A stretch of DNA of 64,000 nucleotides from an uncultured bacterium (GTDB taxonomy: Bacteria; Margulisbacteria; Termititenacia; CAZZFK01): contig CAZZFK010000001.1 in assembly GCA_964653455.1 (NCBI GenBank), positions 158,179 to 222,178 on the forward strand, written 5' to 3'. Each line of letters opens with the position of its first letter. Positions within the stretch are counted from its first letter, which is position 1. Position numbers and translations under genes: made by a program. Positions 3,306-60,973 of the stretch are shown here, one piece after another. Under the pieces are notes generated by a model. It was not told where the DNA came from and did not search any database. It worked only from the letters and a program-made list of their open reading frames with translations.

Positions 3306-4811
3306 TCACACCTCAATATCTATCTCTGCAAAGTTCAGCTTCAGCGGAGGCACGCCGACCCCCTGCTCACTGAACGTACGACATATATATGCATACGCCT
3401 GTGTGACCGACAGTTTGCGGAATTCATGCAGGTCGAACTTTTCCCAGACCACATTAAGGTCATACACCTGTTCCCCCGGGACGGACACCAGCCTCATCGT
3501 ACCCGTCCCAATATCATTGATGAACAGACCCCTCCTGTTGGAAACCACCTCGATCGCAGAGTTCAAGAGCTGCATCAGCCTGCTCTCCCCGAAGAACAAT
3601 ACCGTATATCGGATAAAGGCTTCCAGGTCCTGCTCCGGCAACACCCGCTCCCCGTGATAAAAATCGCTCATACTGGTGTTCCGGGGAAGACGGGACATAT
3701 CGAACGTCCCGTATTGTGAACTCAACCGCTCAAGGTACGCATCCATGAAGGAGTAGGTCAACCCTGCATATTTATCTATACAATCGAACACCACTCTTCT
3801 GCCTAAATGGGCATCAAAAAGCCGATCGACTTTTCGTCGTTCTTCATCCGAACGTGCGCGAGGTCCGGCACAGATGAACCGGGCTTGCATACGAAGCTTG
3901 TGCTCGATCGCTGTGAGCTGTTCCTGAAGAAAATCCCTGATCACACGACGATATTCCGCAGGCAGTCCGGCACGGTCCCAGACCGCACCATCATTTATTT
4001 CCGCAACGACAATGGCCATATCTCCCGGCAGCGGAAAATATCTTTCATATACATCGGACAGAACCATATCGAGCGGACTCTCGTCAGCTGCTATTCGCTC
4101 AAGGACCTCATGAAAACGTTCGAGAGAAAAATATCTCACAGCATGTTCACTGCTGAATATATGCATGAGCTCAGACTCCTGCACATGCCTTTTGATCCAC
4201 TGTGCATCACGCTCTTCCTGAGTATCCTCAAGACAAGCAACGATATCGAACGTCTTTTCACCGGAACGTTCATCACGGACCATCCAGGGGGACAGGTCCA
4301 TCGGAAGCGGCTTGGACCAGGTAAGGACCTCGAAGAGGAGCTTTGAGATATACTGCTCCGCTTCTTTTTCAGGCATCCGTCCCTCAACTATCTGCCATGC
4401 TTTTTCCGAGGTATGAAAAGTGTCATACAAACGTTCCATTGAATTATCGTACGGTCCCTGGGCACGCCATTCCTGATAGCTCGGGCCAGGGATAGTGGAG
4501 AACTTTTCCCAGTGCTCGAAAGCCCGCCTGTACTTGGCCTCGCTGCTCTCCGGATAGCACTGAAAGACCTCCCGGTACAAGGGGTCCTTTCTATCCGTAA
4601 AATTCACCTTTTTAAGGGATTGAAGGAACCGTCCGACCGGGATCTCCGTGACGCCGTTACCTTCCCGATACATCGAACGGATCATTTCCGCACGGGCCGG
4701 CCGGTACTCTGTTGTCAGATAGTTATTCTCAACATACCACTTGAACTTCTCCGCGAACGTCGGTTGGACATTGGTATCTTCGGTCGGTGCACTGATACAC
4801 TTAATGAACAT
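3306..4811 (-). CDS. hypothetical protein (501 aa)
   Basis: Long uninterrupted ORF, co-directional with the neighbouring Ppx gene; no family motif recognised by eye. Confidence 0.55.
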   Translation of the reverse strand: MFIKCISAPTEDTNVQPTFAEKFKWYVENNYLTTEYRPARAEMIRSMYREGNGVTEIPVGRFLQSLKKVNFTDRKDPLYREVFQCYPESSEAKYRRAFEHWEKFSTIPGPSYQEWRAQGPYDNSMERLYDTFHTSEKAWQIVEGRMPEKEAEQYISKLLFEVLTWSKPLPMDLSPWMVRDERSGEKTFDIVACLEDTQEERDAQWIKRHVQESELMHIFSSEHAVRYFSLERFHEVLERIAADESPLDMVLSDVYERYFPLPGDMAIVVAEINDGAVWDRAGLPAEYRRVIRDFLQEQLTAIEHKLRMQARFICAGPRARSDEERRKVDRLFDAHLGRRVVFDCIDKYAGLTYSFMDAYLERLSSQYGTFDMSRLPRNTSMSDFYHGERVLPEQDLEAFIRYTVLFFGESRLMQLLNSAIEVVSNRRGLFINDIGTGTMRLVSVPGEQVYDLNVVWEKFDLHEFRKLSVTQAYAYICRTFSEQGVGVPPLKLNFAEIDIEV

Positions 4812-5974: not shown

Positions 5975-6622
5975 ATGCCCCATGACGTTTACAATACCGC
6001 CATGAACGAAAGCTCATTCAACATGAGGGCAAAGAACTGGGACAGGAACACGGTCCTCCGCGACCTTGCAGGTACCGTCGCGAAACATATAAAGATGTCC
6101 GCCGCTCCCGGAGGACACGCTATCGATCTCGGGTGCGGGACCGGCCTACTCGGACTGGAACTGATGGACCATTTCACGGACATCGTTTTTGCCGATTCCT
6201 CGGATGGTATGCTCGAAGAAGTTCGCAACAAGCTTGCACATCACAAAAAAGGACCTGCGTGCCGCACGCTCAGGATCGACCTCGATCATGACGAGCTTCC
6301 CGGGACCTACGATTGTATCTTTTCCCAAATGTCTCTCCACCACATCAATGATACTGAAAGGTTCATCGCACATATCGTCCCTCACCTTACCCCGCAGGGC
6401 ATCGTATGCATCGCTGATGTGGTCGCTGAGGACGGATCGTTCCATCAAGGGACCACCGTGCCGCACAATGGCTTCAATCCCTCCTCGCTCCGTGCTCTGT
6501 TCGGGCGGGCGGGGCTGCATACATCCGTCATCGAACCGGTATTCACCATCACAAAACCGGCCCCGGACACGGTAAAGGATTTTCCGATATTCCTGATGAT
6601 CGGTAAAAGAACGACCCCTTAA
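5975..6622 (+). CDS. class I SAM-dependent methyltransferase
   Basis: IDLGCGTGLLGLEL is the Rossmann SAM-binding motif I; acidic motif II (IVFADSSDGM) follows at the expected spacing. Confidence 0.75.
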   Translation: MPHDVYNTAMNESSFNMRAKNWDRNTVLRDLAGTVAKHIKMSAAPGGHAIDLGCGTGLLGLELMDHFTDIVFADSSDGMLEEVRNKLAHHKKGPACRTLRIDLDHDELPGTYDCIFSQMSLHHINDTERFIAHIVPHLTPQGIVCIADVVAEDGSFHQGTTVPHNGFNPSSLRALFGRAGLHTSVIEPVFTITKPAPDTVKDFPIFLMIGKRTTP

Positions 6623-8067
6623 GACGATCTTTGAAGTGCGTGAACGATATCGACCATAGCTTTGGTATCAAGCCCACAGTATTCCTTCAAATGAGCATAG
6701 ACCTCGGCACGGTCAGCATGGTCGTCAGTATACGTGACCCGGTAGTATTCGTGGCTTGCTGTTTCTCCGTCCCCGATCGCCATCCCTTCATATGACGTAC
6801 CGACCAATGCGGGCAGAACATATTTTATCGATGCTGAGCCCTGCTGAAGAGGGTTATAGTACTCAAAGTTCCTGAACGGAACGAGAAGATCAACGATCCT
6901 ACCTATGATAGTACGGACCTGATCGGCATATGCGGGGAATTGTTTCGCACAGGCGTTCAGGATCATACCTTCGAACTGCCTGTTGTAGACCACCACGCTC
7001 CCCGTGTTCCCGACATGCGCACAGACCGACCGGATGAACGTTCCACGCGGGTCCGCAGTCCCTTCTGAAAGGAATGACAGATGTTCGAGCGGTGCCCCAG
7101 GGGAACGTTCGATGTGCAACGAATACTGGAACGGGACATGCTCATGAGGATGCGTACCCTCGAACAAAGGGACCGCAGGAGCGAACGACTCAAAATCAAG
7201 ATAATGAACGGGATACTTCAGCAGGGATAAAAAAGAGCGTATCGCGGACACATCGGTATGGACCGTTCCAGACAATGTCGTCCGGACCTGGATATGTTGT
7301 CTTTCATTAAGATGATATCCCGGCGGAAGCTGATCGAAGGTCATGATGCCCTTATGTATGAGCTCAAAGGCCTGATATTTCCGCAGACCATAGAGATCGA
7401 GCACGCTGTTCTCCGGGATATGCGCAAAACAACGGGACATCAACGGACAATGATGCGGTGTCGTACATTGTTCGCCGATAACGACCGTCGGTGCCTCCGC
7501 AGAACGATGTACTAGGCGCACGCGGGAGATGTCCCCGGCGAGATGTATTTTCCGTTCCCGGACAACGGAGGTCACATCCTCTTTCATAAAAAGCACTGCA
7601 GGCCTCAGCTCACCGCGACGTACGTAGTCCGGGTTCAGGTACAAAATGGAACACGTATTGATACGTAATCCCGCACCTTCATAGACATACAACTGGAACG
7701 CGACATCGGTATAGTGTTCATCCTTGACTGCCGTCGTGGATTTCACCTCCACCACATCCCATGAACCGTCATGGCCCGGGAGCAGAATATCCGCACGTGC
7801 AAAACAGCCGTCATACATGAATCCCGCCTCGAAGAGCGGTGTTCTGTTATCGGGTACACGGGTCAGTACGGCGGGATCGCTCACCGTTCCCTCAAGAACA
7901 ACACCATCAGGATACAATGCTCGCGCTAAGAGCCCGACACTCTTCCCTGCGTCCATACGTGCCCGCTGTGATACAGAAAGCGGTTCAAGGTCATGCGGCG
8001 CATGTTGTTTTTTCCAGGCATACAGAGGACATTGCAGGCCGATGAGCAGATCGGATTTGGTGAACAT
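6619..8067 (-). CDS. two-domain nuclease: N-terminal Cas4/RecB-like PD-(D/E)XK domain with Cys cluster, C-terminal DEDD-like 3'-5' exonuclease-like domain
   Basis: N-terminal Cys (GLQCPLY), DVVEVKS (ExK of PD-(D/E)XK) and C.5.C.5.C (CTTPHHCPLMSRC) match the Cas4-like layout; C-terminal HYLDFESF, YNRQFEGMIL and HADRAE resemble exonuclease motifs I, II and III. Confidence 0.55.
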   Translation of the reverse strand: MFTKSDLLIGLQCPLYAWKKQHAPHDLEPLSVSQRARMDAGKSVGLLARALYPDGVVLEGTVSDPAVLTRVPDNRTPLFEAGFMYDGCFARADILLPGHDGSWDVVEVKSTTAVKDEHYTDVAFQLYVYEGAGLRINTCSILYLNPDYVRRGELRPAVLFMKEDVTSVVRERKIHLAGDISRVRLVHRSAEAPTVVIGEQCTTPHHCPLMSRCFAHIPENSVLDLYGLRKYQAFELIHKGIMTFDQLPPGYHLNERQHIQVRTTLSGTVHTDVSAIRSFLSLLKYPVHYLDFESFAPAVPLFEGTHPHEHVPFQYSLHIERSPGAPLEHLSFLSEGTADPRGTFIRSVCAHVGNTGSVVVYNRQFEGMILNACAKQFPAYADQVRTIIGRIVDLLVPFRNFEYYNPLQQGSASIKYVLPALVGTSYEGMAIGDGETASHEYYRVTYTDDHADRAEVYAHLKEYCGLDTKAMVDIVHALQRSS

Positions 8068-8126: not shown

Positions 8127-9713
8127 TCAAACGACCAGGTCCCGCTCCTTACACTCCGACGTCCGGTAGAAGACCAACTTCGGATAGAGCTCCCGCACAT
8201 GATGCAGCTCCCACTGACCTTCAAAGAAGTATACGAGCCGCTCATCAGTATCGAGCGCTATTTTCATCACACGTTCCCGCTTCACTTTTTCTATCTCCGC
8301 ACTGTCACCGCCGATCCAATAAGCGAACGCTCTGGGATACTCGGCATATTCACAATCTGCACCGTATTCGCTCTTGAGCCGGTATTGCACGACCTCGAAC
8401 TGCAGGACACCGACAGCACCAAGAAGGAGGGAATTATCAAAGATCATCTTAAAGAGCTGCACCGCTCCTTCTTCAGAGAGCTGTCGAAGCCCGGTCTGCA
8501 ATTGCTTGGTCTTATTGGTATTGCGATTGATGACACGACGGAACGTTTCAGGAGCAAAGCTGGGGATGCCCGTATAATGCAATGTTTCACCTTCCGTGAA
8601 GGTATCCCCGATCTTAATGAGACCAGTATCGTGTATCCCGATGATATCCCCGGGATAGGCCTCTTCGATGATCGTCCGAGTCTGCGCCATGAACGTGATC
8701 GGGTCCGCGATCTTCATCTCACGGTCCAGACGGATGTTCTTTACTTTCATGCCGCGAGTGAATTTTCCGGAATTGATGCGCATAAAGGCCACTCGATCCC
8801 TGTGACGCGGGTTCATGTTGGCATGGATCTTGAAAACGAGCCCGGTCAATGCAGGCTCCTGCGGCTCAACTGTCCGCTCTTCTGCGGGACTTGGCTGCGG
8901 CATCGGAGCCAGTTTGACGATATGTTCAAGCAGCTCATAGACGCCGAAATTATTGATGGCGCTCCCGAAGAACACCGGTGTCATTTTCCCGTCCAGGTAT
9001 TGTGCCAGGTCGAACTTCTCGAGCGCTCCCTCGATCATCTCCAGGTCCTGGAGCAGTTTATCTGTATAGAGCGGTTCGACATCAGGGATGGACCGGGGGT
9101 CGCCGACCGTTGCGGTCGTGAACGTTTTGGCCCCTGCCTTGAACGAAAGGAACGCCTTGTCCGCGATGTTATAGACACCTTTGAACGTCTTGCCCATACT
9201 GATCGGCCAACTCAGCGGGATCGCCTTGATGCTCAAGCTTTGTTCGATATCATCGAGCAGATCGAACGGGTCGCGCCCTTCCCGATCGAGCTTATTGATG
9301 AACGTTATGACCGGGATATTACGCAGCCGACAGACATCCATCAGCTTTTTTGTCCTGTCCTCGACGCCTTTCACGGAATCAATGACCATCAGGACCGAAT
9401 CGACGGCCGTGAGCGTGCGATAGGTATCTTCACTGAAATCCGCATGTCCCGGCGTGTCCAGAAGGTTTATGACCACGCCTTTATGCTCGAAACACATGAC
9501 CGAGGTGGCGATAGACACACCGCGTTCGCGCTCGATCTCCATCCAGTCGGACGTCGTATGCCGGTCCGTCTTGCGTGATTTTATCGCGCCGGCCTGCTGG
9601 ATAGCACCGCCAAAGAGCAAAAGCTTTTCCGTGATCGTCGTTTTTCCCGCATCCGGATGACTGATGATCGCAAAGGTCCTGCGTATCGATATTTCGTGCT
9701 GAAGCTCTGCCAT
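8127..9713 (-). CDS. prfC: peptide chain release factor 3
   Basis: N-terminal RRTFAIISHPDAGKTTITEKLLLFGGAIQ.AG and DTPGHADFSEDTYRTLTAVDSVLMVID are near-canonical RF3 GTPase sequences; 528 aa. Confidence 0.95.
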   Translation of the reverse strand: MAELQHEISIRRTFAIISHPDAGKTTITEKLLLFGGAIQQAGAIKSRKTDRHTTSDWMEIERERGVSIATSVMCFEHKGVVINLLDTPGHADFSEDTYRTLTAVDSVLMVIDSVKGVEDRTKKLMDVCRLRNIPVITFINKLDREGRDPFDLLDDIEQSLSIKAIPLSWPISMGKTFKGVYNIADKAFLSFKAGAKTFTTATVGDPRSIPDVEPLYTDKLLQDLEMIEGALEKFDLAQYLDGKMTPVFFGSAINNFGVYELLEHIVKLAPMPQPSPAEERTVEPQEPALTGLVFKIHANMNPRHRDRVAFMRINSGKFTRGMKVKNIRLDREMKIADPITFMAQTRTIIEEAYPGDIIGIHDTGLIKIGDTFTEGETLHYTGIPSFAPETFRRVINRNTNKTKQLQTGLRQLSEEGAVQLFKMIFDNSLLLGAVGVLQFEVVQYRLKSEYGADCEYAEYPRAFAYWIGGDSAEIEKVKRERVMKIALDTDERLVYFFEGQWELHHVRELYPKLVFYRTSECKERDLVV

Positions 9714-10387: not shown

Positions 10388-13246
10388 CTACTTCCCTCGC
10401 CGTACCATTGCATGCAACGATTGATACCAGGCCTTCCCCGTCCGCGTTCTTTTCATCTCAAGGTCTTTCACGACATTTTCCATCCATGGCCCGTACGCGA
10501 ACACGACCCGCTTAAAGATGTTCAGTACCTTATGCGCTTTACGTATCGGCAATTGTTCAGCGATATATTGTTCGTACTTTTCACGCTGATGATACGGTTC
10601 CAGGAAGATATTCAGGTCATGCACACTGTCTTTTGCTCGCTCCAGTATCTTTTTGAGCGCTGTCCTGCTCCGCGGATTTTCCCAGAGAATATCAACGATA
10701 TCGAGCAATCCTGTCATCCTCCTCCGCCCTGTCGCTTCATCATCGCCCTGGAGTTGCGTCTCAGGAACGATCTCTTTGAGCGTCGCATAATTGAGCTCAT
10801 ATTCTTTGCGGGACTTGACCGAACCCTCGATATATCCGCCTACGAGCTCGGACGCGATCTTTCCCATGAGCACCACAGATAGAGCGACCCCTGCCCAACC
10901 AAAAAGATAGGAAAGACCGAACGCGATCGGCCCCGCGATAAAACTTCTCATAAGATTCCGTCGCTTTACGTCCTGTGTGAAACCTCTCAATGAATTATGC
11001 GCATAGATGTACCCCCCATTGAGGGCCGCGAGGGCCACATAGTTCAGGAACCGCTTCGCCATCTCAACAGCAGCATGCTGCTGCGTTCGCAAATGCTCCG
11101 CGATATGTCCATGATACGCGGAGACGTACGCGATCATCTGGTCCATGCTCTGCTCGAGCAGAGCACCGTCAGTCGTGAGCACCATGGACTGAAAATAATG
11201 GTCCGCGATACGGAGCACCGGTATAGAAAGAAAACTGAAGAACATGGAGACCGCGGCATTATGCGGATCAAAATCCTTCATACGCCAATTAACCGGGTTC
11301 CAGCCGTTCTTAGCGACCAGATCCACGACCATATTACGTCCGTACGTGATAAAGAACCAGAACGCATGCACAGCTTCACCGTACGAGAACGCTGCCTTTC
11401 CACAATAGACCGCATATGAGACCGCAGTGCCTAACGTCATCACGATCACGTCTTTGACATGCATATTGAGATCGAACACATAGTCCCGCATCCGGCCGAA
11501 CGGGCCTGTGCGCAGGACATCTGACCGCAGCTGCAATTTCGCCTTCTCGCTCTTGCCCAAAGAGAGCACTACACCATGATCAGAGGACGATCTCACGGAC
11601 ACATGCCCGAGCAGACCGGTCAGTGCATCACGAGGACCCATTCTGAGACCGATCATATCAACGGCGTTCACACGAAGAAGTCGTCTCCAGCGGCGGACCT
11701 TCCTGCGGTCGGTGTACCCCATCCCAGGGACCTTATGGTTATGCCCGTCCGAATTACTGCCGATACGGGCCCGCAAGGGGACCTTCCTGAAATGCTCGGA
11801 GGCTTTCGCCAATTGATAGCGTCGTATATCCAGTTTTTCCCGCTCGACCAACCGCACGGCTTTCGTGACCTGACCCTCGTTCAAACATTCTCTGATCTTG
11901 TTGAGTAAAAGCATCTGTCGTATCAGCTCTGGTCCGGCCACACGATTATTCCATACTTCGATCGATGAGATATGTTCATGATATGTGGTCATATAGTCCA
12001 CTGCCGCTTCCAGACCATGGATAATGGACCTATTGAGAACAACATGTGCCCGGATCTCCTGACCTTCCTGGGAGACCGCATTGATACGTTCAAGAGCAGT
12101 GAAGGCGGTCTCCGGCAACATGAACCGCATGCTGTCCATCATCTTGAAATAGATACCATCAAAATATTTCTTTCTAAGATACACCTTATCCATGCGTTCA
12201 GGGAGCTTTTTACCGTTAATGAGAAAGAGCGCGGTCAAATGAGCGTGCAGATACCGACCGAGATGGACCTGAAACAACGGTTTCCCCTGGGCATAGGTAT
12301 ATAAATCCTCGAGGTCCAAAGACGGTATCGTGATCTGTTCATAGACCAGGTCGCTGTTCAAGACGGGCAGGACCTCCGCATTGAACCGCTCAATGAGACG
12401 AACGAACAACTGATCACGGGTCTTATTGTTCTTGCGAAGCGCCTGAGCGAACTGCTGCCAGGCTTTATCAGCAAAAAGTGCGTCATAATCCCCTATCGTG
12501 CGACAATGCTCGAACACGACGGTCTGATGATAGTATCGCCCGCCATAACTGACGACATATTCCAGGCCGCAATGGACCGTGATATCCAGGATAGCACCGG
12601 CACATACCACTTCATGAATAGCATCCCTATCCTCGAACGCATCAAATACGATCGTGAGCCCGGACAAGCCTTTGATATACGCGTCCAGAACGAGCTGTGC
12701 AGGCCGTTTGCGATCGATAGAGACATGATCGTCCCATGCGATACGTCCGGTCTTTTCCGGTATCTCGGCCATACCCAGGAGGGCGAGCGCACGGCGTACG
12801 GCAGGAGCTTTACCCGAAAGGGCACGCATGTAACAGTCGACCAGCCGGCATTGCCGTAAGATGTTCCCTTTTGCCTTCACACATTCTTTCATAAGGGCCA
12901 TCAGTACCGGAGGCGTGTTCAGCGGCATTTCCTTGCTGTTATAATTGCGACCTTCCTCCATCAGCCTTTTGAGCGCACGCAACCGCAGGTCAGGATCATT
13001 GGAGCGGATAGCGACATAGAGCAGTGCCATATCAAGGGGCTTTTCATAGACCACCTCTTTGAACCCGCGCACATGCCCTTCGAAGAAGAAATGGATATCG
13101 GCGATATCACGATCCAGTAGTTCGTTCAGCGTACGAACGGTCGCATATATCTCCGGGGAGAACGTGGTCGCGCGGCGCACACGGCCGGAAAATGTCATAT
13201 CCCGGACATGCTCAATGACCGCAGCGGCTACTATCTTGGCGAACAT
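10388..13246 (-). CDS. large uncharacterised protein (952 aa) with predicted transmembrane segments
   Basis: Long ORF; hydrophobic stretches (FIAGPIAFGLSYLFGWAGVALSVVLMG, MFFSFLSIPVL) towards the N-terminal third; no family recognised. Confidence 0.6.
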   Translation of the reverse strand: MFAKIVAAAVIEHVRDMTFSGRVRRATTFSPEIYATVRTLNELLDRDIADIHFFFEGHVRGFKEVVYEKPLDMALLYVAIRSNDPDLRLRALKRLMEEGRNYNSKEMPLNTPPVLMALMKECVKAKGNILRQCRLVDCYMRALSGKAPAVRRALALLGMAEIPEKTGRIAWDDHVSIDRKRPAQLVLDAYIKGLSGLTIVFDAFEDRDAIHEVVCAGAILDITVHCGLEYVVSYGGRYYHQTVVFEHCRTIGDYDALFADKAWQQFAQALRKNNKTRDQLFVRLIERFNAEVLPVLNSDLVYEQITIPSLDLEDLYTYAQGKPLFQVHLGRYLHAHLTALFLINGKKLPERMDKVYLRKKYFDGIYFKMMDSMRFMLPETAFTALERINAVSQEGQEIRAHVVLNRSIIHGLEAAVDYMTTYHEHISSIEVWNNRVAGPELIRQMLLLNKIRECLNEGQVTKAVRLVEREKLDIRRYQLAKASEHFRKVPLRARIGSNSDGHNHKVPGMGYTDRRKVRRWRRLLRVNAVDMIGLRMGPRDALTGLLGHVSVRSSSDHGVVLSLGKSEKAKLQLRSDVLRTGPFGRMRDYVFDLNMHVKDVIVMTLGTAVSYAVYCGKAAFSYGEAVHAFWFFITYGRNMVVDLVAKNGWNPVNWRMKDFDPHNAAVSMFFSFLSIPVLRIADHYFQSMVLTTDGALLEQSMDQMIAYVSAYHGHIAEHLRTQQHAAVEMAKRFLNYVALAALNGGYIYAHNSLRGFTQDVKRRNLMRSFIAGPIAFGLSYLFGWAGVALSVVLMGKIASELVGGYIEGSVKSRKEYELNYATLKEIVPETQLQGDDEATGRRRMTGLLDIVDILWENPRSRTALKKILERAKDSVHDLNIFLEPYHQREKYEQYIAEQLPIRKAHKVLNIFKRVVFAYGPWMENVVKDLEMKRTRTGKAWYQSLHAMVRRGK

Positions 13247-13394
13247 CTCTGCTCCCTTATTATGGGCGATACATTACCTTCCGGCACACCTGTGCCGGTA
13301 CTATGTTAATATCGTACAGATATCGTTGGAAATTCAGCGGATCAATCCTATGCCGTGGCCGGACGTACGACCGCGCTTGCGCTACCTCGCCAGC

Positions 13395-15521
13395 TCAATG
13401 TACGGGACTGGGGTCAATAGTGCTGTCGGCAGGGTATGTGTTATGGACCCGATATGACGAATACCCCTTGGTCCCTCTCATTTTATTCGCTCGTCGTTCA
13501 TTTTCCAGGATACGGGTAGCTTCTTGAATATCATGTGCAGCATCCTTGAGTACCATCAAGGAATCCTTTTGTATCTGATAGAGCACGTGCCGGGACCTTT
13601 TAAAAAGGGAGGGATATACATGATGCTCGATCGCCCATCGGTTCAGCTGCCTCAGCCGCGCAAGTTCATACTGCTCCCATCGGGCAGGGAAACGGTCCTG
13701 TTCATCCTTCTCGAGCCGACCGCGGACATATCCATACAATTCTGCCGCAAGACGGTCATGCATGACATGTTCTTCCGTTATACCAAGGAGAGAAAAGAGG
13801 TCGTTACGCGCTATCAGTTCATTGAGATTATCCCACGCAGAAAGCCCTGTTCGGGCGGATAATGACGGATACGTCCGCAATAAGAACTCCAATACCTCCT
13901 TAGCGTCCTGATTGCTGATATCCTCAATCCCGTATTTACCCAGGTCCATATCCCACGTCAGGAAATGCGGCCCGAGCCTAAAGGTCCTTTCTTGTTCCTC
14001 GATCCATTTTTTCTGTAAAGCTTGTACGGCCGCATCGATATCTCCGTTACAGGCATCAAATATCCTGCCGTACGTATCCATCGTATTCCTGTCATCGTCG
14101 ATCGAGGCCAGATACCGCAACGCCTCCGTGCGTTCTTGAACATCATGTTGTGCCCCATCACGACCGTCATGCCGAACGGCGAACTTCTTATCCACCTCAG
14201 CCAGAAGATCATCAAGGCTCGCCAACGGGGCATATGTAGGTTCAGGCTTTTTTTCTGACGGACGGTGAACAGGACCATCTTTCGAACTTCCGTCTTTCCG
14301 GTCACCTGAACCCTCTTCCCGAATGACCGCTGCGACACGCATCTTTTTTTTCTGCTCTTCAAGGAGCCTATCCCCTATCTGTTTATGTCTGTCCGATGTT
14401 CTCTGCATGCCGTCCTTGAGCCACTGCCGCACCTCCGCACTGACCGCATCAAAGATACCGCTCGCGGCCATATCCGCGTCGTTCGGCAAGAGATATATCT
14501 GTGTCCCGTTCTGATACCGCAAGAGCTTCTGACCGTTCTCCTGTAACATATGCCGATAGAACAGGACCGAGCGCTCGGTAGTGCCTATATCTTTCGCGAA
14601 TTGGCGCACACACTGGTACATGGTGCGCACCTGACCGCCCATATAACGGCCGCGCAGATATTTATCGAAATCATCAGGATATAATCTGGAGATACTTTCC
14701 GCCCTCTTCAGGTCCTTCATGATCTGCTGCGATATCTTTGCGGGAGCGGACGCATCGAGGTCCAGGCCTTTTGTCGAGAACACTTCTTTTTCCGTATACC
14801 CGCTCTTGGGGTTCTTTTGCAGCCCGAGCTCCAGAACGGACACTAACTTGACCGCATCGCCCACGGATAACGCGAGAGGATCATCAGCCTCTTCCTGCGG
14901 CCACATTTCTTCCAAGCTCTTGGCCTCTTCGGAACGAACGCCCAGTTTTTTAAGCGCATTGGCCTTGCGCTCGTCCTCACAAAATATCAATCTCACGACA
15001 TTCTGCTCTGCAGGATAACGGCATATATCCGACATATGATGTACGAACAAGAACTCAAAATAATACCTGTAGACCCCTGTTACCCCATGGGACTTAAAGA
15101 ACCGTTCTTTATCGGCCGAGAACACATATTCCTCGAACAGTTCTTTCAGGTCCCAGCGAAAAACATCGTCCAGGCAGACCTTCCGTGTCTTTCCCCCGCG
15201 CACTATCACCACCTCATCAAGAGGTGCGTGAGTATGAAATACCGAAGCGAGCAAATCCTTTTCTTTGATGCCTACGGGATGGGGGGACGTTCTGATGTGT
15301 TTCATCAATTCTTCAAAGATCTGTGTGCGCTCTTTTTCTTCCTGTATCTCTTTGAGGTCCAGTTTCTTGACGCCCGCTTTTGTATCCGTAACAAGCGCTC
15401 CGCCGGAAGCCGACCAGTCCAGCAGTTCTTTGCCTTTATCGTCCGATATCATTTTTTTATGCCACATGGCCATACCCCTTCTTCCTATATAGATATCGTA
15501 TTTTTTGGAAAAAACTCCCAT
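13395..15521 (-). CDS. uncharacterised protein, paralog A (708 aa), UBA-like motif
   Basis: Shares with the next gene the N-terminus MG..(D)(I/T)YI.R...M..WH.K..SD, YRYYFEFLFVHH, a GL..D/E..AP.I helix and a Lys/Arg/Pro-rich linker; YGRIFDACNGDIDAAVQAL resembles the UBA / EF-Ts N-terminal fold. Confidence 0.65.
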   Translation of the reverse strand: MGVFSKKYDIYIGRRGMAMWHKKMISDDKGKELLDWSASGGALVTDTKAGVKKLDLKEIQEEKERTQIFEELMKHIRTSPHPVGIKEKDLLASVFHTHAPLDEVVIVRGGKTRKVCLDDVFRWDLKELFEEYVFSADKERFFKSHGVTGVYRYYFEFLFVHHMSDICRYPAEQNVVRLIFCEDERKANALKKLGVRSEEAKSLEEMWPQEEADDPLALSVGDAVKLVSVLELGLQKNPKSGYTEKEVFSTKGLDLDASAPAKISQQIMKDLKRAESISRLYPDDFDKYLRGRYMGGQVRTMYQCVRQFAKDIGTTERSVLFYRHMLQENGQKLLRYQNGTQIYLLPNDADMAASGIFDAVSAEVRQWLKDGMQRTSDRHKQIGDRLLEEQKKKMRVAAVIREEGSGDRKDGSSKDGPVHRPSEKKPEPTYAPLASLDDLLAEVDKKFAVRHDGRDGAQHDVQERTEALRYLASIDDDRNTMDTYGRIFDACNGDIDAAVQALQKKWIEEQERTFRLGPHFLTWDMDLGKYGIEDISNQDAKEVLEFLLRTYPSLSARTGLSAWDNLNELIARNDLFSLLGITEEHVMHDRLAAELYGYVRGRLEKDEQDRFPARWEQYELARLRQLNRWAIEHHVYPSLFKRSRHVLYQIQKDSLMVLKDAAHDIQEATRILENERRANKMRGTKGYSSYRVHNTYPADSTIDPSPVH

Positions 15522-15582
15522 TTTGAGGGGCTCTGGAGGGTGGTGCCCGGTGTGAAAAATACCGAATAATGCCGGACCTTCG

Positions 15583-17424
15583 TCAGCCGAACATATCCTT
15601 CAGTTCCTGGGCATGTTTCTCATTGATCTCAGCGGCTTTACGTAATAATTCTTTCTTGGCGACCTCGAAGTTGCCTCCGTTCTCTTCCAGGACACTTTTA
15701 CATTGGTCCTTGTCAAAACCGGCCATCATCACTTCACGCAACAGGGTCAACTCGCGAACTTCCTTTGAATAGGATCGGAGCAGCTCGGAACGCCAGAGGA
15801 TATCTTCCTCTTTTTCGTTCAACGGGCGGCCAAGCAACAATATCTTTCTCGCTCGGCCGATACTATTGCCTGAACGTTCATACGCAGAGGAGCACTCATC
15901 CCAGGTCTTTTTCGTTTCATAACAAAGGCTGAAGATATCGTCCTTTATTTGCTGCTCAGCAGTGATCGCCGCACGTTTCAGCGCATCGTGCTTCCTATCC
16001 ACCTCTTCACAGATCTGTTCAAAACTCTTCCGGGGAGGGAATTCCACCGGCACATACTGTTTCCTTTGAGGGACTTCCGCTTTAGGCGACGAGACCTTTT
16101 TTGGCGGGATCACAGGGACAGGCCGTGTCTCAGATTCTCGCTTTCCCCGCATTTCCGTCTCGCGTTGTTTTTGCTTTGCTTCTTCAAGAGCGGCCATTTT
16201 ACGCCCCGCCGCCAATATCTCCTCATGTTCTTCATCGTTCTTCAGCTTCAACCAATCGATGACATCCATGATGCGCCGTTGGTTCACATCGTTCTTGTCT
16301 TTCCGCTGACGATGGAGCTCATCTTTCAGCCCGGACAACGCAGTGGGATTGTTCAGGACGATGTACATTTCGCCCCTGTCCTCATATATGAAGAATTTTA
16401 CGCCGTTATTCAAAAGGAGATACTTGACCGCCTCAATGGCTTTGACCGTGCATCCGAGCTCTTTGGCCAACCTCGATTCTTCTCCGCCATAGTCCTGGTC
16501 CAAAAGTTTTTTAAGGTCCTCAAAACGCTGATATTCATACTTGATCTTTTTGCGCTCATGAATGAGTTTACGTATCTGCGGTGCCGTCTCCCTGTTCAAC
16601 CCAAGAGCATTGAGGAGCGTACGCTCCGTATACCCTAACGGGTCCCTTCTGTTGCCTTTGTTCAATAACCCCAGAAGTTCTTCTTCTTTCTCATGAAATA
16701 TCTGGATCGTATCGATATTCTCGTATTCGAACGTATCATAACCGACCCACAGGGATTCCAGTTGCTGTGCGGCAATGGAATTCTTGCCCAATTTTGCTAC
16801 GGCAGCCTCTACCCTGTCCTGCAGGGAAGGAAGAATGAAGATCTCCCCGTTATGAGCATATCTGATGATCTTGAGCGGATGATTGGCGAACAGATAACTG
16901 AAGTAGTACTTATACTGCTCTTTGATGTTCGAATCGGAAAGGAATCGTCCGATATTGTTCACATATCTGCGGGAAAGCTGGACCATATCTTCGACCGAGA
17001 TATCCATTAAGGGTTTTACCTTGAAATCATTTGGCCCTGCGATCACATTATAGGGGACCTGCGGCACCTTGATAGTGAACGCTGCCGGATATCCGAGGAC
17101 CTCCAGCAAGCGTTTTTCCCGCACACCGAACACGTCCTTTTCCGTGCTTAATTCATGTACGATCTTCTTTCTCAGGTCCTCGAGGGCCCTCTCATCTTTC
17201 AATTCAGCGGGCGTTTTTTTAACTTCCTGTTTAACGTCAAAAGTATCATCCGCAGCGAACAACTGCAGGTCCATACGCAGCTCAATACGCTCGCCATTCT
17301 CTCCGACCGCATATACGGGCGTTCTCAGCCACGCAAGACAATCGGATAATAATTTATTATGCCACACGGACATACCTGTGCACCTCTGTATATAGGTATC
17401 GGAACCTCCTGAAGGTCGTCCCAT
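15583..17424 (-). CDS. uncharacterised protein, paralog B (613 aa), C-terminal UBA-like domain
   Basis: Paralogous to 13395..15521 (YKYYFSYLFANHP, LGCTVKAIEAVKYLLLNNG); C-terminal VMMAGFDKDQCKSVLEENGGNFEVAKKELL fits the UBA consensus (MGF ... NG.(V/F)E.A...LL). Confidence 0.65.
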   Translation of the reverse strand: MGRPSGGSDTYIQRCTGMSVWHNKLLSDCLAWLRTPVYAVGENGERIELRMDLQLFAADDTFDVKQEVKKTPAELKDERALEDLRKKIVHELSTEKDVFGVREKRLLEVLGYPAAFTIKVPQVPYNVIAGPNDFKVKPLMDISVEDMVQLSRRYVNNIGRFLSDSNIKEQYKYYFSYLFANHPLKIIRYAHNGEIFILPSLQDRVEAAVAKLGKNSIAAQQLESLWVGYDTFEYENIDTIQIFHEKEEELLGLLNKGNRRDPLGYTERTLLNALGLNRETAPQIRKLIHERKKIKYEYQRFEDLKKLLDQDYGGEESRLAKELGCTVKAIEAVKYLLLNNGVKFFIYEDRGEMYIVLNNPTALSGLKDELHRQRKDKNDVNQRRIMDVIDWLKLKNDEEHEEILAAGRKMAALEEAKQKQRETEMRGKRESETRPVPVIPPKKVSSPKAEVPQRKQYVPVEFPPRKSFEQICEEVDRKHDALKRAAITAEQQIKDDIFSLCYETKKTWDECSSAYERSGNSIGRARKILLLGRPLNEKEEDILWRSELLRSYSKEVRELTLLREVMMAGFDKDQCKSVLEENGGNFEVAKKELLRKAAEINEKHAQELKDMFG

Positions 17425-47209: not shown

Positions 47210-47781
47210 AGGATGCTCCTCGGATAGACCTGCGTATTGAGCGTCAGTGTATATTCCCGCACACATGCACCAACGGAAAAAGATATCCCAGCTCCGGAAG
47301 CTCTGAACATCGTCACCGGCGGCGGCAGAAGGTCTTTGGCGATAACGGTCCCTGTGCCGTAATTCCCCTGTGTCACATTAGGTGATGCCAGCAGCTTCAA
47401 TTGCACGGTCTGGGTCGGGCTATACGATCCGTACTGATAGAACTGGAAACTGGACGCCGGTACATACATATAAAAGATATGCCCTGTATCGTTCTTCAGG
47501 TACGATAACGTTGCTCCGCTCCCTCCTACCGTTACAGAACCGCTACGGGCGGCGCGGACCTCACGCGAGACCGACTGCACGGCCCTACGCGCCTCATCTT
47601 CCACTCTTCCCTGCACCAACCCGATATCCCAGGACCGGTAGGCCATCATGTACACATAAAATATCAGCTCAAAGATAAAAAGAGATATCGAAAGCGCAAT
47701 GATCAGTTCCATAAGCGTCACCCCGCGGCGGCCGTCCGCTCGTCCCCCTGATATCAAATCCTTCAGCCGGGTGATGGTCAT
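47206..47781 (-). CDS. pseudopilin with prepilin-type N-terminal domain
   Basis: GVTLMELIIALSISLFIF is the prepilin cleavage/methylation motif (G-(F/V)TL.E + helix); start set at ATG 47781 (GAGGGAG upstream, ATGA overlap) rather than 47835. Confidence 0.6.
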   Translation of the reverse strand: MTITRLKDLISGGRADGRRGVTLMELIIALSISLFIFELIFYVYMMAYRSWDIGLVQGRVEDEARRAVQSVSREVRAARSGSVTVGGSGATLSYLKNDTGHIFYMYVPASSFQFYQYGSYSPTQTVQLKLLASPNVTQGNYGTGTVIAKDLLPPPVTMFRASGAGISFSVGACVREYTLTLNTQVYPRSIL

Positions 47782-48224
47782 AGAAAGAACTCCCTCACGA
47801 TAGTAACGGAACCCTTGCTGTCCCGCTCTATCCACTGCACATTCACCGTTACACGTTCGGAGATAGTGCCCGACTCAACTTCGATCTCCGGGAGGAATGA
47901 GGAGCGCGGCGGAGAGCTCTGCGCGACCTGTTCCATTAATTGCTCGGCACGGACCGCGGCTTTAAGCTGTGCCCGGGCATCATTTGAAGAACGAATATCT
48001 ACATTGAACACCTCAAGGATGGCGACCAGAGAGAACGCCACCACGAACACTGAAATAATGACCTCAATAAGGGTAAAGCCGTCACGGCCAGCCCTGAACG
48101 TGCTGGGTAGCTGGACTTCACTGGGTTCAATGCTTTTGACAGCTGCTTCAGGAGCCCCCCTGAACGCGCTGATTTGCCGGCTCTTACTGGTTTTAATGCT
48201 TTTGACAGCTGCTTCAGGGGTCAT
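47778..48224 (-). CDS. pseudopilin with unusually long leader containing a tandem duplication
   Basis: GFTLIEVIISVFVVAF prepilin motif preceded by a 50-aa leader with the repeat PEAAVKSI(K/E)(T/P)S twice; AGGAGG 5 nt upstream of ATG 48224. Confidence 0.6.
   Translation of the reverse strand: MTPEAAVKSIKTSKSRQISAFRGAPEAAVKSIEPSEVQLPSTFRAGRDGFTLIEVIISVFVVAFSLVAILEVFNVDIRSSNDARAQLKAAVRAEQLMEQVAQSSPPRSSFLPEIEVESGTISERVTVNVQWIERDSKGSVTIVREFFL
48121..48218. repeat. two copies of a 32-bp direct repeat, 66 bp apart
   Basis: CTGGGTTCAATGCTTTTGACAGCTGCTTCAGG (48121-48152) and CTGGTTTTAATGCTTTTGACAGCTGCTTCAGG (48187-48218); within the pseudopilin leader coding region. Confidence 0.8.
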
Positions 48225-56755: not shown

Positions 56756-57469
56756 CTACTTCCCGGCCTTCTCTACAGCTTCCAAGAACTTTTCTTCAGG
56801 CAATGCTCCGGACAGTTTTATTTTTTCATTGATAACGGTCATGGGGACACCAACCACATCGTACTTCTGTGAGAGATAGGGGAATTCGTTGAGCTCCACC
56901 ATGTCCGCACGGATGAGCGGATTATGCATGGCGAACTGATGTGCCAAACGCACCATTTTCGTGCAATACGGGCACGTGGGTGTCACCAGGACCTGTATAT
57001 GCACCGGCTTCTTTATCCTTTCAAGACGCGCGATGGTCCCGGATGAAAGCTCAGAACCGCCTCGAGAAGCGTCCTTTATCGCTTCGATAAGGTTCGAGAA
57101 CTCATATCCTGAAGGGATACCGAAGAAACGCACGCCACTTGTCCGCGCACCGACAGGAACGATCGCGGGGATCTTATCCACGCCATAGTTCCTGGCGGTC
57201 AGCACATCCTTCTGGAACTCATGTTTCTCCACTTTGATCTTCGGGGAGAGCTTCGACAGTTCATCGACCAGCTGATCGTTCTGCCCGCAGGGTACGCACC
57301 GCAGCTCCTGTGTGAACACAACGAGCGTGACCGGTGCGGTCACTTGTTTGAACTCTTTTTTAAGTTGTTCCTGTACGGACTTCGGCAATAACTGCTCTGC
57401 CATGAGCGCACAGGTCATACTTGCAACTAATGCTATACTAATGAAGATGATACGTGCATATCTGAACAT
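56756..57469 (-). CDS. secreted thioredoxin-fold protein disulfide oxidoreductase (two C..C motifs)
   Basis: Signal peptide; CVPC and TPTCPYC redox motifs in two thioredoxin-like halves. Confidence 0.6.
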   Translation of the reverse strand: MFRYARIIFISIALVASMTCALMAEQLLPKSVQEQLKKEFKQVTAPVTLVVFTQELRCVPCGQNDQLVDELSKLSPKIKVEKHEFQKDVLTARNYGVDKIPAIVPVGARTSGVRFFGIPSGYEFSNLIEAIKDASRGGSELSSGTIARLERIKKPVHIQVLVTPTCPYCTKMVRLAHQFAMHNPLIRADMVELNEFPYLSQKYDVVGVPMTVINEKIKLSGALPEEKFLEAVEKAGK

Positions 57470-57531
57470 GACTGCATTATATCAATGCAATAATGCAACT
57501 GCAAAGGTCGTACGGAAAAAAGGAGAGATAT

Positions 57532-58608
57532 ATGCTGCTGAAAGACAAAGGTCTTCGCGCAACAAAAAAGAAAGTCCTGTCCAAGAACGTTAACCAGGTC
57601 TCTGTCGGCCCGAGAACGACCGTCAGTGAACTGCTGGACGAGTTCAAAGGGGCCTCTATACAGGCCCGGAACCTCGGCGCCTGCGCGGACGTCCTGGAAC
57701 GGATGCTTCGTGACAAAAAACGGCCGACGATACTGCTGGGACTGGCAGGACCGCTCATCGCGGCCGGTCTGCGCAACGTCATCCGCGGCATGATCGAGAA
57801 CAACATGGTGGACGTCATCGTCTCCACGGGGGCCATCATGTACCAGGACATTTATCAGGCACGCGGCAATCAGCATTTTGTCGGGACCCCGCAGGCCGAT
57901 GACGGAAAGCTCGCGGACCTCTATATCAACCGCATCTATGATACGTACATTGACGAGGAGAAATTCTGGGAAACGGATTGTTCCGTCTCGCGCTTTGCGG
58001 ATACGCTCGAAGTACGCGACTATTCGACCCGGGAATTCATGGAGCTGCTCGGCACGAAGTTCGTGAGCGCAAAGGATTCCATCGTCTGCACCGCGGCAAA
58101 AAAAGGTGTCCCGATATTCGTTCCGGCACTGAACGACTCCAGCTTGGGCATCGGATTGACCGACCATTATCATCGTGCCCGCAAGAACGGGCGCACCCCT
58201 ATCACGATCAGCTCGATACGGGATAATTATGAACTCGCCCAGATCGTGGCCAAGTCCAAAGAGACCGCGGCCATCTATATCGCCGGCGGTGTGCCAAAGA
58301 ACTACATCAATGATGCTGTCGTCATGACCTATATCTTTGATATCGAGGACATGCATAAGCACGGGCACAAGTACGCCCTCCAGCTCACGACGGATGTCCC
58401 GCACTGGGGCGGACTTTCCGGCTCGACGCTGCACGAGGCGAAATCCTGGGGAAAGGTCGATAAAAAAGCGAACACCGCTATGGCGTTCGTGGAACCTTCG
58501 GTCTCCCTGCCGCTGCTCTACGGCCATGCGCTGCAGAAAAAAGCATCGGCCGGACGCAAGCCGCTCAGGTTCGTCTGGGACCAGGACCTGCTGACCTCTT
58601 TGCGCTAA
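57532..58608 (+). CDS. deoxyhypusine synthase-like protein
   Basis: LLGLAGPLIAAGLRNVIRGMIENNMVDVIVSTGA and AGGVPKNY resemble the DHS NAD-binding core; start at ATG 57532 with AAGGAGAG upstream. Confidence 0.7.
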   Translation: MLLKDKGLRATKKKVLSKNVNQVSVGPRTTVSELLDEFKGASIQARNLGACADVLERMLRDKKRPTILLGLAGPLIAAGLRNVIRGMIENNMVDVIVSTGAIMYQDIYQARGNQHFVGTPQADDGKLADLYINRIYDTYIDEEKFWETDCSVSRFADTLEVRDYSTREFMELLGTKFVSAKDSIVCTAAKKGVPIFVPALNDSSLGIGLTDHYHRARKNGRTPITISSIRDNYELAQIVAKSKETAAIYIAGGVPKNYINDAVVMTYIFDIEDMHKHGHKYALQLTTDVPHWGGLSGSTLHEAKSWGKVDKKANTAMAFVEPSVSLPLLYGHALQKKASAGRKPLRFVWDQDLLTSLR

Positions 58609-58704
58609 GCGCTGGCACACTGACCATTTGTTCATGGTCAGTGAAATTACAGAAGATTATGTTCGACACCTTACAGGGATACGTTCGCTATAAGGAGCCG
58701 ATAT

Positions 58705-59194: not shown

Positions 59195-60973
59195 CTAGCG
59201 CGATTGACGCCGCATGTTGTCGATACCTTGATCGAGCGGCGAATCGTCATGATCATCCGCCCAGATATCGCAGAATTCAAGGGTGGAGCTGATCGGCGGC
59301 GCGTTCGGAGGGGTGACCTTGATGCGCAACGGTAACAATACCGCATCACCGATGACGATCAATTCTCCGATGCCCAATATCGGCAGTGATTCCACAAGTC
59401 CGGACATACCGTCCGGCATGAGCTTCTTCACTATCTCCTGGTCCATCGAATTGGTCAAACGCAAGGTCATGATGTTGCCGCATTGGCTCAAGATGCCCGG
59501 ATTCACGTCAGCCGGACGCTGACTGACCACCATCAGGGCGACCCCGTATTTCCGGCCTTCCTTGGCGATACGTTGAAAATTAAAGAGCGTATTCCGCTGC
59601 ATGGCGTTCGCGATCTCCGTCGGCGGCAGGTACAGATGGGCCTCATCGCAGACCATGACCACCGGATGACGGTCCGTCGGCTCGTTCCAGAACTGCACCA
59701 GGAACAGGAACCGGCCGATGGTCGAGATGATGACCGGGAGCATTTCGCTCGGCACCATGGAAAAGTCGATTATCTTGATGCCGGGGTTCGTCTTGTCCAA
59801 CTTACCCGTACCCAGCAATATTTTCACGAACTTATTGATATAGTCGAAATCAAAAACATATTTCGGTCCTTCAAAAAGGAAGTTATAGCGTTTATCAGCC
59901 TTCTTTGCTTCGATACGCGGGATGAACCGGTCGAACTTGCCGTAGTACGGCCCGGCCGTGACATTGCCCAGACCGATGCCGGGAACGAGCTCTTTATTGA
60001 TGCGCTTCAGTTTTGTCAGGACCTCGTTCATGTCGTACGGTATCGGACTGTCAATGGTAAAGGATTTGATATAGCGCTCCTGCTTATGTTCTTTCAAGTA
60101 CTGCAGTTTCTCGTTCTTGATGATCTCATGCAGGACCAGGGCGTGCGTCGGAGCGTCCGGATCATGATTATCCACAAGCACCGTCAATAATTCCTCATAG
60201 CTCAGGAACCAGGCAGGCATGAAGAGAGATTCATCCGTGGGATTCGCGGAATCCGCAGGCGTGGCGATATGCAGCGACTTCGCGTAATGCAGGCCTTTAT
60301 ATTCACCGTGGATATCGAAAATGACCACATTGGCGCTGTTGAGCTCGGCGACCTTCTCGATGATCGTGGACACGGTCCAGGATTTTCCGCAGCCGGAACT
60401 GCCCAGGAGCGCCACATGCCGCTGAAAAAGCTTGTTGCCGTTCACGTACGCGACCACGTCCTTGTCCAGGACATAGTTGCCAAAAGGCAGATCGGCGTTC
60501 GTGCGGCTCTCCGAGATACCGCCCATAAAGAACGCCAGATCGGGTCCTTCGAGCGCAAAGCAGGGAGCTTCGACATCAGCGACGTTAATGACAGCACGCG
60601 TAAAGCTCCCCTTATGCGTACGCTTATTGATCATGAACGTGCCGATGAGACCTATCTCGGCGATATGTTTTTTCTCCAGGTCCGTCGCCCCGTCCCCTTC
60701 CAGCGTGTTCTCGATACGTCCGATCAGGAACTCATGCTCACGTACCCGGACCGCACACAACCGGTCGACGCGGGCTATTTTCAGTTTTTCAATGGATGCG
60801 ACACGCATACGCAGACGCGTACTGGTCACTTCAAAGATGGTCCCTATGAATTCTTCTTCCGAAAAATCAAATACAGGCGCAGTATCTGCGTTCTCAAGCC
60901 GTGCGATCTCCTTCGCACTGGCCGAGGTCTCCTGCCCTGTTCGCTGTGTGGCTTTATCCTTCATGTGGCCCAT
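59195..60973 (-). CDS. HerA-like (DUF87, FtsK/HerA superfamily) ATPase
   Basis: Walker A GSSGCGKSWTV, Walker B VVMVCDEAHLYLP and the family-typical LMVVSQRPADVNPGILSQCGN; start may be the internal ATG at 60964, which has better spacing to GAGGGGG. Confidence 0.7.
   Translation of the reverse strand: MGHMKDKATQRTGQETSASAKEIARLENADTAPVFDFSEEEFIGTIFEVTSTRLRMRVASIEKLKIARVDRLCAVRVREHEFLIGRIENTLEGDGATDLEKKHIAEIGLIGTFMINKRTHKGSFTRAVINVADVEAPCFALEGPDLAFFMGGISESRTNADLPFGNYVLDKDVVAYVNGNKLFQRHVALLGSSGCGKSWTVSTIIEKVAELNSANVVIFDIHGEYKGLHYAKSLHIATPADSANPTDESLFMPAWFLSYEELLTVLVDNHDPDAPTHALVLHEIIKNEKLQYLKEHKQERYIKSFTIDSPIPYDMNEVLTKLKRINKELVPGIGLGNVTAGPYYGKFDRFIPRIEAKKADKRYNFLFEGPKYVFDFDYINKFVKILLGTGKLDKTNPGIKIIDFSMVPSEMLPVIISTIGRFLFLVQFWNEPTDRHPVVMVCDEAHLYLPPTEIANAMQRNTLFNFQRIAKEGRKYGVALMVVSQRPADVNPGILSQCGNIMTLRLTNSMDQEIVKKLMPDGMSGLVESLPILGIGELIVIGDAVLLPLRIKVTPPNAPPISSTLEFCDIWADDHDDSPLDQGIDNMRRQSR

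Follow-up and report, generated by a model that had tools for sequence, protein, structure and literature searches.

A DUF2779-family protein predicted to combine a Cas4/RecB-type nuclease and a DEDDy exonuclease in an uncultured Margulisbacteria genome

Background

Here we describe a gene of the DUF2779 family (Pfam PF11074) carried by a 64,000-nucleotide stretch of DNA from an uncultured bacterium of the lineage Bacteria; Margulisbacteria; Termititenacia; CAZZFK01 (contig CAZZFK010000001.1 of GenBank assembly GCA_964653455.1, forward-strand positions 158,179 to 222,178). We refer to this whole 64 kb stretch as the window, and all coordinates are positions within it. The gene is a complete coding sequence on the minus strand (6619..8067, -), which starts with ATG and encodes 482 amino acids (aa) followed by a stop codon, as given by the list of open reading frames (ORFs), the colinear homologs and an AlphaFold2 model. 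Judged by its sequence, the product is an ordinary member of the DUF2779 family, of typical length and layout. We consider it probable that such proteins consist of a Cas4/RecB-type nuclease, a helical linker and a DEDDy exonuclease, and that they trim or degrade DNA ends of both polarities.

A prediction made earlier from the letters of the window (hereafter the original prediction) had read the ORF as a fusion of a Cas4/RecB-like PD-(D/E)XK nuclease with a DEDD-like exonuclease. Translation confirmed the coordinates and the presence of every motif quoted. The idea is correct and it is not new: the architecture defines DUF2779, is no unrecognised oddity and has already been published. Majorek et al. 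2014 (PMC3985635) assigned DUF2779, their family F.17, to the 3′-5′ exonuclease clade within the RNase H-like superfamily, recording also its co-occurrence with DUF83. A 2026 mSphere paper on MMSYN1_0389 describes the two-nuclease fusion, names the same catalytic residues and argues that both domains are active. The D/E/K triad has been reported to be conserved throughout PF11074, with a tyrosine replacing the DEDDh histidine in motif III of DUF2779 (PMC13621843).

The present analysis adds that the second domain is a DEDDy-type exonuclease with a glutamate in motif II. New relative to the literature are also the retention of four cysteines in the mainstream of the family, about 490 aa in length, compared with two in MMSYN1_0389, the C-x5-C-x5-C spacing of three of these cysteines, a near-invariant aspartate (D393) and the lack of any conserved genomic partner.

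Results

The original prediction had proposed profile searches against the Cas4 and DEDD exonuclease families. The sole Pfam match is PF11074, a family of the 3′-5′ exonuclease clade, whose score of 130.3 bits exceeds the cut-off of 23.3 bits (E=6e-38), the complete model (1-126 of 126) aligning with residues 288-413 (6829-7206); the Cas4/DUF83 family PF01930 remained below threshold. A local match to NCBIfam NF045869 (UU173, the Mollicutes branch of DUF2779) covers residues 281-317 and scores 23.9 bits, below the cut-off of 225. To quantify residue conservation, 262 family members were aligned to the family profile and counted at each site, and the counts below refer to these 262 sequences. 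With the exception of HADRAE, the residues of the motifs quoted in the original prediction are kept in 244-262 members. Taken with the PF11074 score, the motifs are far above chance expectation.

The N-terminal Cas4/RecB-like nuclease domain comprises residues 1-215 (7423..8067, -) and shows the PD-(D/E)XK fold, its catalytic core being of the D...ExK type. In this core, D93...E107-V-K109 (7741..7791, -), the aspartate is invariant (262/262), and E107 and K109 are found in 257 and 260 members, respectively. Downstream lies Q125 (7693..7695, -; 261/262), the glutamine of the RecB-type QhxxY motif, while the Y129 that follows it is not conserved (tyrosine in 101/262). The domain carries four conserved cysteines, which probably hold a 4Fe-4S cluster: C13 near the N-terminus (8029..8031, -; 258/262), a probable iron-sulphur (Fe-S) ligand, and the triad C201-x5-C207-x5-C213 (CTTPHHCPLMSRC; 7429..7467, -), whose members are kept in 251, 255 and 244 sequences and whose family consensus reads CxxPYxCPLxxxC. 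The Cas4-type layout proposed originally, with one N-terminal cysteine, an ExK motif and C.5.C.5.C, is conserved in the family.

The C-terminal domain, residues 286-482 (6622..7212, -), is a DnaQ-like DEDDy 3′-5′ exonuclease domain of the RNase H fold. Exo I is D291-F-E293 within the string LDFES (7189..7197, -), with D291 in 261 and E293 in 260 members. Exo II is Y361-N-R-Q-F-E366 (6970..6987, -), in which a glutamate, E366 (259/262), replaces the usual aspartate, and F365 and N362 are kept in 251 and 206 members. Both had been identified correctly in the original prediction, with the motif II acid now seen to be Glu. Its candidate for motif III, HADRAE (6703..6720, -), was rejected because it is not conserved: in place of H450 other members have E, P, A, D or K, the position of D452 is occupied by E in 172 members and by D in 45, and that of E455 by K or R. 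Motif III is in fact Y463-C-G-L-D467 (6667..6681, -; Y463 in 259, C464 in 260 and D467 in 259 members), and it is by this Y-x3-D arrangement that the domain counts as DEDDy. The expectation that the catalytic acidic residues would be conserved in homologs was borne out, D291, E293, E366 and D467 each being present in 259-261 members. An additional acidic residue of the exonuclease domain, D393 (6889..6891, -), is nearly invariant as well (aspartate in 260/262).

Structure prediction agrees with the division into two nucleases. The AlphaFold2 model, computed from a 39-sequence alignment, has a mean predicted local distance difference test (pLDDT) score of 93.4 and a predicted template modelling (pTM) score of 0.89, values that indicate one rigid, confidently packed two-domain body. 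In a Foldseek comparison the N-terminal half superposes on Cas4, which ranks first (8d3l_I, E=1.3e-5), and then on SSO0001, the AdnAB nuclease, human Exo5 and the Argonaute-associated Cas4-family protein ACE1. The C-terminal half superposes on DnaQ-like DEDD 3′-5′ exonucleases, so the original prediction was not overturned by a C-terminal half of some other fold. The top fold matches are DNA enzymes, namely polymerase proofreading domains, ExoI, DnaQ, a TREX1 homolog and Cas4; that proofreading domains are the best structural matches fits the DEDDy assignment. Between the two domains, residues 216-285 (7213..7422, -) form a helical linker with three confident helices (230-238, 255-266 and 273-280) and two invariant residues, L225 and Q260. 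Its consensus possibly resembles a helix-hairpin-helix; a faint Pfam match to the Pol lambda fingers domain is non-significant (E=0.13) and the Foldseek matches to Pol lambda are of low probability.

Neither a PHROGs search nor a PDB search with the single sequence gave a match, and the PDB profile search gave only a marginal one (E=0.012), to residues 258-310 of 9qhs_A. This solved protein of 1142 aa, named 'putative DNA-directed DNA polymerase I', carries in that region the family's unusual Exo II string VVYNxSFE, also with a glutamate, which hints that the DUF2779-type exonuclease domain is fused to a polymerase as well.

The two-nuclease architecture is widespread. A search of 5.8 billion proteins returned 1,604 homologs; for the best 120 listed, coverage of the query is 97-100 % and length 477-534 aa. 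Public databases already contain an identical protein, for which a PF11074 match has been precomputed; this entry aside, the best homologs are full-length and colinear at 40-45 % identity. Among 1.84 billion representatives of 50 %-identity clusters, a profile search recovered 13,799 at E<=1e-3, of which 4,860 have E<=1e-30. The alignment runs from end to end (positions ~3-488) in most of the 150 top matches, indicating that both nuclease halves nearly always occur together. The whole module is also found inside longer proteins, such as P0148 (770 aa), P0251 (811 aa), P0236 (648 aa) and P0183, where it occupies residues 367-853 of 3010 aa.

Sampling 80 DUF2779 loci from species-representative genomes recovered many bacterial phyla as well as archaea (Woesearchaeota, Methanosarcinales, Heimdallarchaeota and Thermoplasmata). 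Bacterial and archaeal members share a mean identity of 44 %, close to the 45 % seen among bacteria and the 47 % among archaea, and in this comparison the closest relative of the window protein is a sequence from Woesearchaeota. On these sequence identities, frequent horizontal transfer of DUF2779 genes is suggested. One Parcubacteria metagenome-assembled genome, isolate NP996, carries two DUF2779 genes on separate contigs, PBQF01000079.1 (L020) and PBQF01000063.1 (L071).

Across these loci the DUF2779 gene stands alone, without a conserved genomic partner. All-against-all clustering of the ORFs within +/-6 kb of the ~80 loci gave no neighbour family present in more than four loci, a Pfam scan of 130 immediate neighbours gave no domain occurring more than four times, and no recurrent cas-like neighbour family was seen across the ~80 loci.

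In the window, prfC (8127..9713, -) lies directly upstream of the DUF2779 gene on the same strand, with a gap of 59 bp in which neither a promoter-like nor a terminator-like site was seen. On the other side, a gene for an S-adenosylmethionine-dependent methyltransferase (5975..6622, +) converges on the 3′ end of the DUF2779 gene and overlaps it by 4 bp, and efp and a Ppx/GppA-family gene are located farther along. The surrounding genes are thus housekeeping genes, and GC (guanine and cytosine) content shows no anomaly across the DUF2779 gene. The original statement that the gene adjoins prfC and not cas genes is accurate: none of the 51 window ORFs matched the Cas1, Cas2 or Cas4 families, and no CRISPR-like interspaced repeat array was detected in the 64 kb. 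An Rfam scan of the whole window also gave zero matches.

A functional link with prfC was considered and rejected. None of the three closest relatives of prfC (80 %, 75 % and 67 % identity) has a DUF2779 gene beside it, and the adjacency is therefore incidental; it is absent from all other loci of the ~80 sampled as well. The closest named relatives of the window prfC come from Candidatus Margulisbacteria and Candidatus Termititenax (62-66 % identity), and its closest metagenomic relatives are 75-80 % identical. These relatives make an uncultivated genome of the Margulisbacteria lineage the probable source of the window.

Several other features of the window were recorded. A HerA-type ATPase of 592 aa is encoded at 59195-60973 (-), with an E-value of 3e-184 for PDLC04105, the HerA model of PADLOC. 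The ORF that follows on the minus strand (57433-58635, -), 400 aa long and without a Pfam match, might be its partner or effector. Being more than 50 kb away, this locus is unrelated to the DUF2779 gene. Three consecutive large ORFs at 10388-17424 (-), of 952 aa (10388-13246), 708 aa (13395-15521) and 613 aa (15583-17424), have no Pfam or PADLOC match, and the same is true of a 501-aa ORF at 3306-4811 (-). At 48092-48218 a 61-nt unit occurs in two tandem copies, 82 % identical and spaced by 66 nt, within the ORF 47778-48224 (-), where it is probably an internal protein repeat. One window ORF matches PADLOC WYL-domain models (E=8e-21).

Discussion

Related enzymes suggest how the protein may work. 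In Cas4, Exo5, Dna2 and AddB, the N-terminal helix of the nuclease domain is held to its C-terminal part by an Fe-S cluster, and the active site takes a single-stranded end or flap. DEDDy domains rely on two-metal catalysis and remove nucleotides from 3′ ends. By analogy with the former group, the predicted Fe-S domain of the DUF2779 protein would capture a free single-stranded end, or a flap, and cleave it in the 5′ to 3′ direction or endonucleolytically, while the DEDDy domain would trim 3′ ends. Joined rigidly, the two could process or degrade DNA ends of both polarities without a helicase motor or a conserved partner. Strong purifying selection has kept the two active sites intact, so both are probably catalytic, with a dependence on divalent metal. 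DNA repair, clean-up of recombination intermediates or turnover of linear DNA seem the most likely roles.

What is reported of other family members bears on these roles. MMSYN1_0389 of JCVI-syn3.0 is quasi-essential in a phage-free minimal cell, and its authors see a role 'beyond bacterial immunity'. A Mycoplasma bovis transposon mutant in a DUF2779 gene has been listed together with recD, holA and nanoRNase mutants. These phenotypes point to nucleic-acid housekeeping rather than immunity, and the quasi-essentiality of MMSYN1_0389 in particular hints at a housekeeping role for DUF2779. A broader proposal, which we put forward tentatively and regard as possible though doubtful, is that DUF2779 constitutes an unrecognised and widespread class of helicase-independent DNA-end enzymes, each uniting a 5′-end or flap nuclease with a 3′-5′ exonuclease in one rigid body and serving genome maintenance rather than CRISPR or defence. 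If this proposal is true, the window protein would be a good representative for biochemistry because it keeps the four cysteines.

Several observations weigh against an enzyme that trims DNA ends of both polarities. The Cas4 profile PF01930 reaches only 12.8 bits where 22.7 are required (E=0.13), and the PADLOC Cas4 models likewise give sub-threshold matches (E=0.004-0.03); because these profiles match weakly, the kinship with Cas4 lies at the level of fold and motif and not of Pfam membership. Cas4 and AddB space their cysteines as C-x2-C-x5-C. The window protein has C-x5-C-x5-C, unlike either, which leaves binding of a cluster unproven. Motif II has a glutamate, E366, as its acid and not an aspartate. 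The literature found reports no enzyme assay of any DUF2779 protein, so that activity, DNA or RNA substrate and polarity are inferred. Finally, the patchy distribution across bacteria and archaea agrees less well with a core repair gene than with an accessory one.

One alternative is a stand-alone defence nuclease against phages or plasmids, which would degrade linear DNA from the ends as it enters the cell. The near-equal identity within and between domains and the Woesearchaeota sequence as closest relative, both suggestive of horizontal transfer, agree with a defensive role, as do the low lineage-specificity of DUF2779 in the PathFams paper, the treatment of the family under 'immunity connections' (PMC13621843) and a few restriction-type genes among the 130 immediate neighbours at other loci (GmrSD twice, Mrr twice and an N6_N4 methylase twice). 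We nevertheless judge defence to be unlikely. PADLOC gives only the sub-threshold Cas4 matches and no defence-system model, no partner gene is conserved, and the window gene sits amid housekeeping genes at unremarkable GC content. Mobile elements rarely carry the gene: tblastn against 50,697 phage records gave zero matches, and copies were found on only 33 of 72,556 plasmids. The quasi-essentiality of MMSYN1_0389 in a cell that meets no phage, and its authors' own view of it, also speak against defence.

Two further explanations turn on the genes that might act alongside the protein. An RNA-processing enzyme, in which an RNase D-like DEDDy exoribonuclease is combined with an accessory endonuclease and linked to translation through prfC, would account for the same-strand position 59 bp downstream of that gene with no promoter- or terminator-like site between them; we think it very improbable, given that the adjacency is found neither in the three closest prfC relatives nor at any other of the ~80 loci and that the top fold matches are DNA enzymes. 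An accessory of CRISPR adaptation would join two prespacer-trimming activities, those of Cas4 and of a DEDDh exonuclease, and act in trans on a distant cas locus. With no Cas1, Cas2 or Cas4 and no repeat array in the window, no recurring cas-like family at related loci, and DUF2779 occurring also in CRISPR-poor groups such as Mollicutes (PMC13621843), we attach hardly any weight to it. The preferred reading remains a DNA-end enzyme with two nuclease sites.

The significance of this particular window is small, as automatic annotation would label the product 'DUF2779 domain-containing protein'. The family as a whole, which comprises about 14,000 50 %-identity clusters and has members in both bacteria and archaea, one of them quasi-essential, is a worthwhile experimental target.

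Comparison with known systems

With Cas4 (PF01930/DUF83; SSO0001, 4ic1; type I-C and Cas4-Cas1 fusions, 8d3l and 7mi4), the window protein shares the D...ExK core and the set of one N-terminal and three C-terminal cysteines. Unlike Cas4, it falls below the PF01930 threshold, has the C-x5-C-x5-C spacing, shows no association with cas genes or CRISPR, and is fused to a second nuclease. Set beside the Fe-S end-processing nucleases (Exo5, Dna2 and the nuclease domains of AddB/AdnAB), the window protein lacks a helicase or motor domain, nor is a gene for one conserved in its neighbourhood.

The exonuclease half shares Exo I (D-x-E), Exo II (N-x2-F-acid) and Exo III (Y-x3-D) with DEDD exonucleases, both DEDDy (the proofreading domains of family A and B polymerases, RNase D and the WRN exonuclease) and DEDDh (DnaQ, ExoI, TREX1 and MrfB). 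It departs from them in its motif II glutamate and the extra D393, and in being fused to a PD-(D/E)XK nuclease instead of a polymerase or helicase. The combination of DUF83 with a DnaQ-like exonuclease recurs in COG2251/PF13482 (RNase_H_2, YprB-like; family F.13 of Majorek et al.), and a few DUF2779 homologs (P0033, P0086 and P0100) also have a precomputed PF13482 match. COG2251 is, however, a separate Pfam family, often with tandem AAA domains, which the window protein lacks.

Nearest of all are the other DUF2779 proteins, the closest homolog among the matches listed being ~45 % identical. MMSYN1_0389 has the same Pfam family, two-nuclease architecture, D/E/K triad, four acidic residues and motif III tyrosine. 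It is longer, its DEDD region beginning at about residue 460, and keeps only two cysteines, whereas all four are present in the window protein, a member of the common ~490-aa branch.

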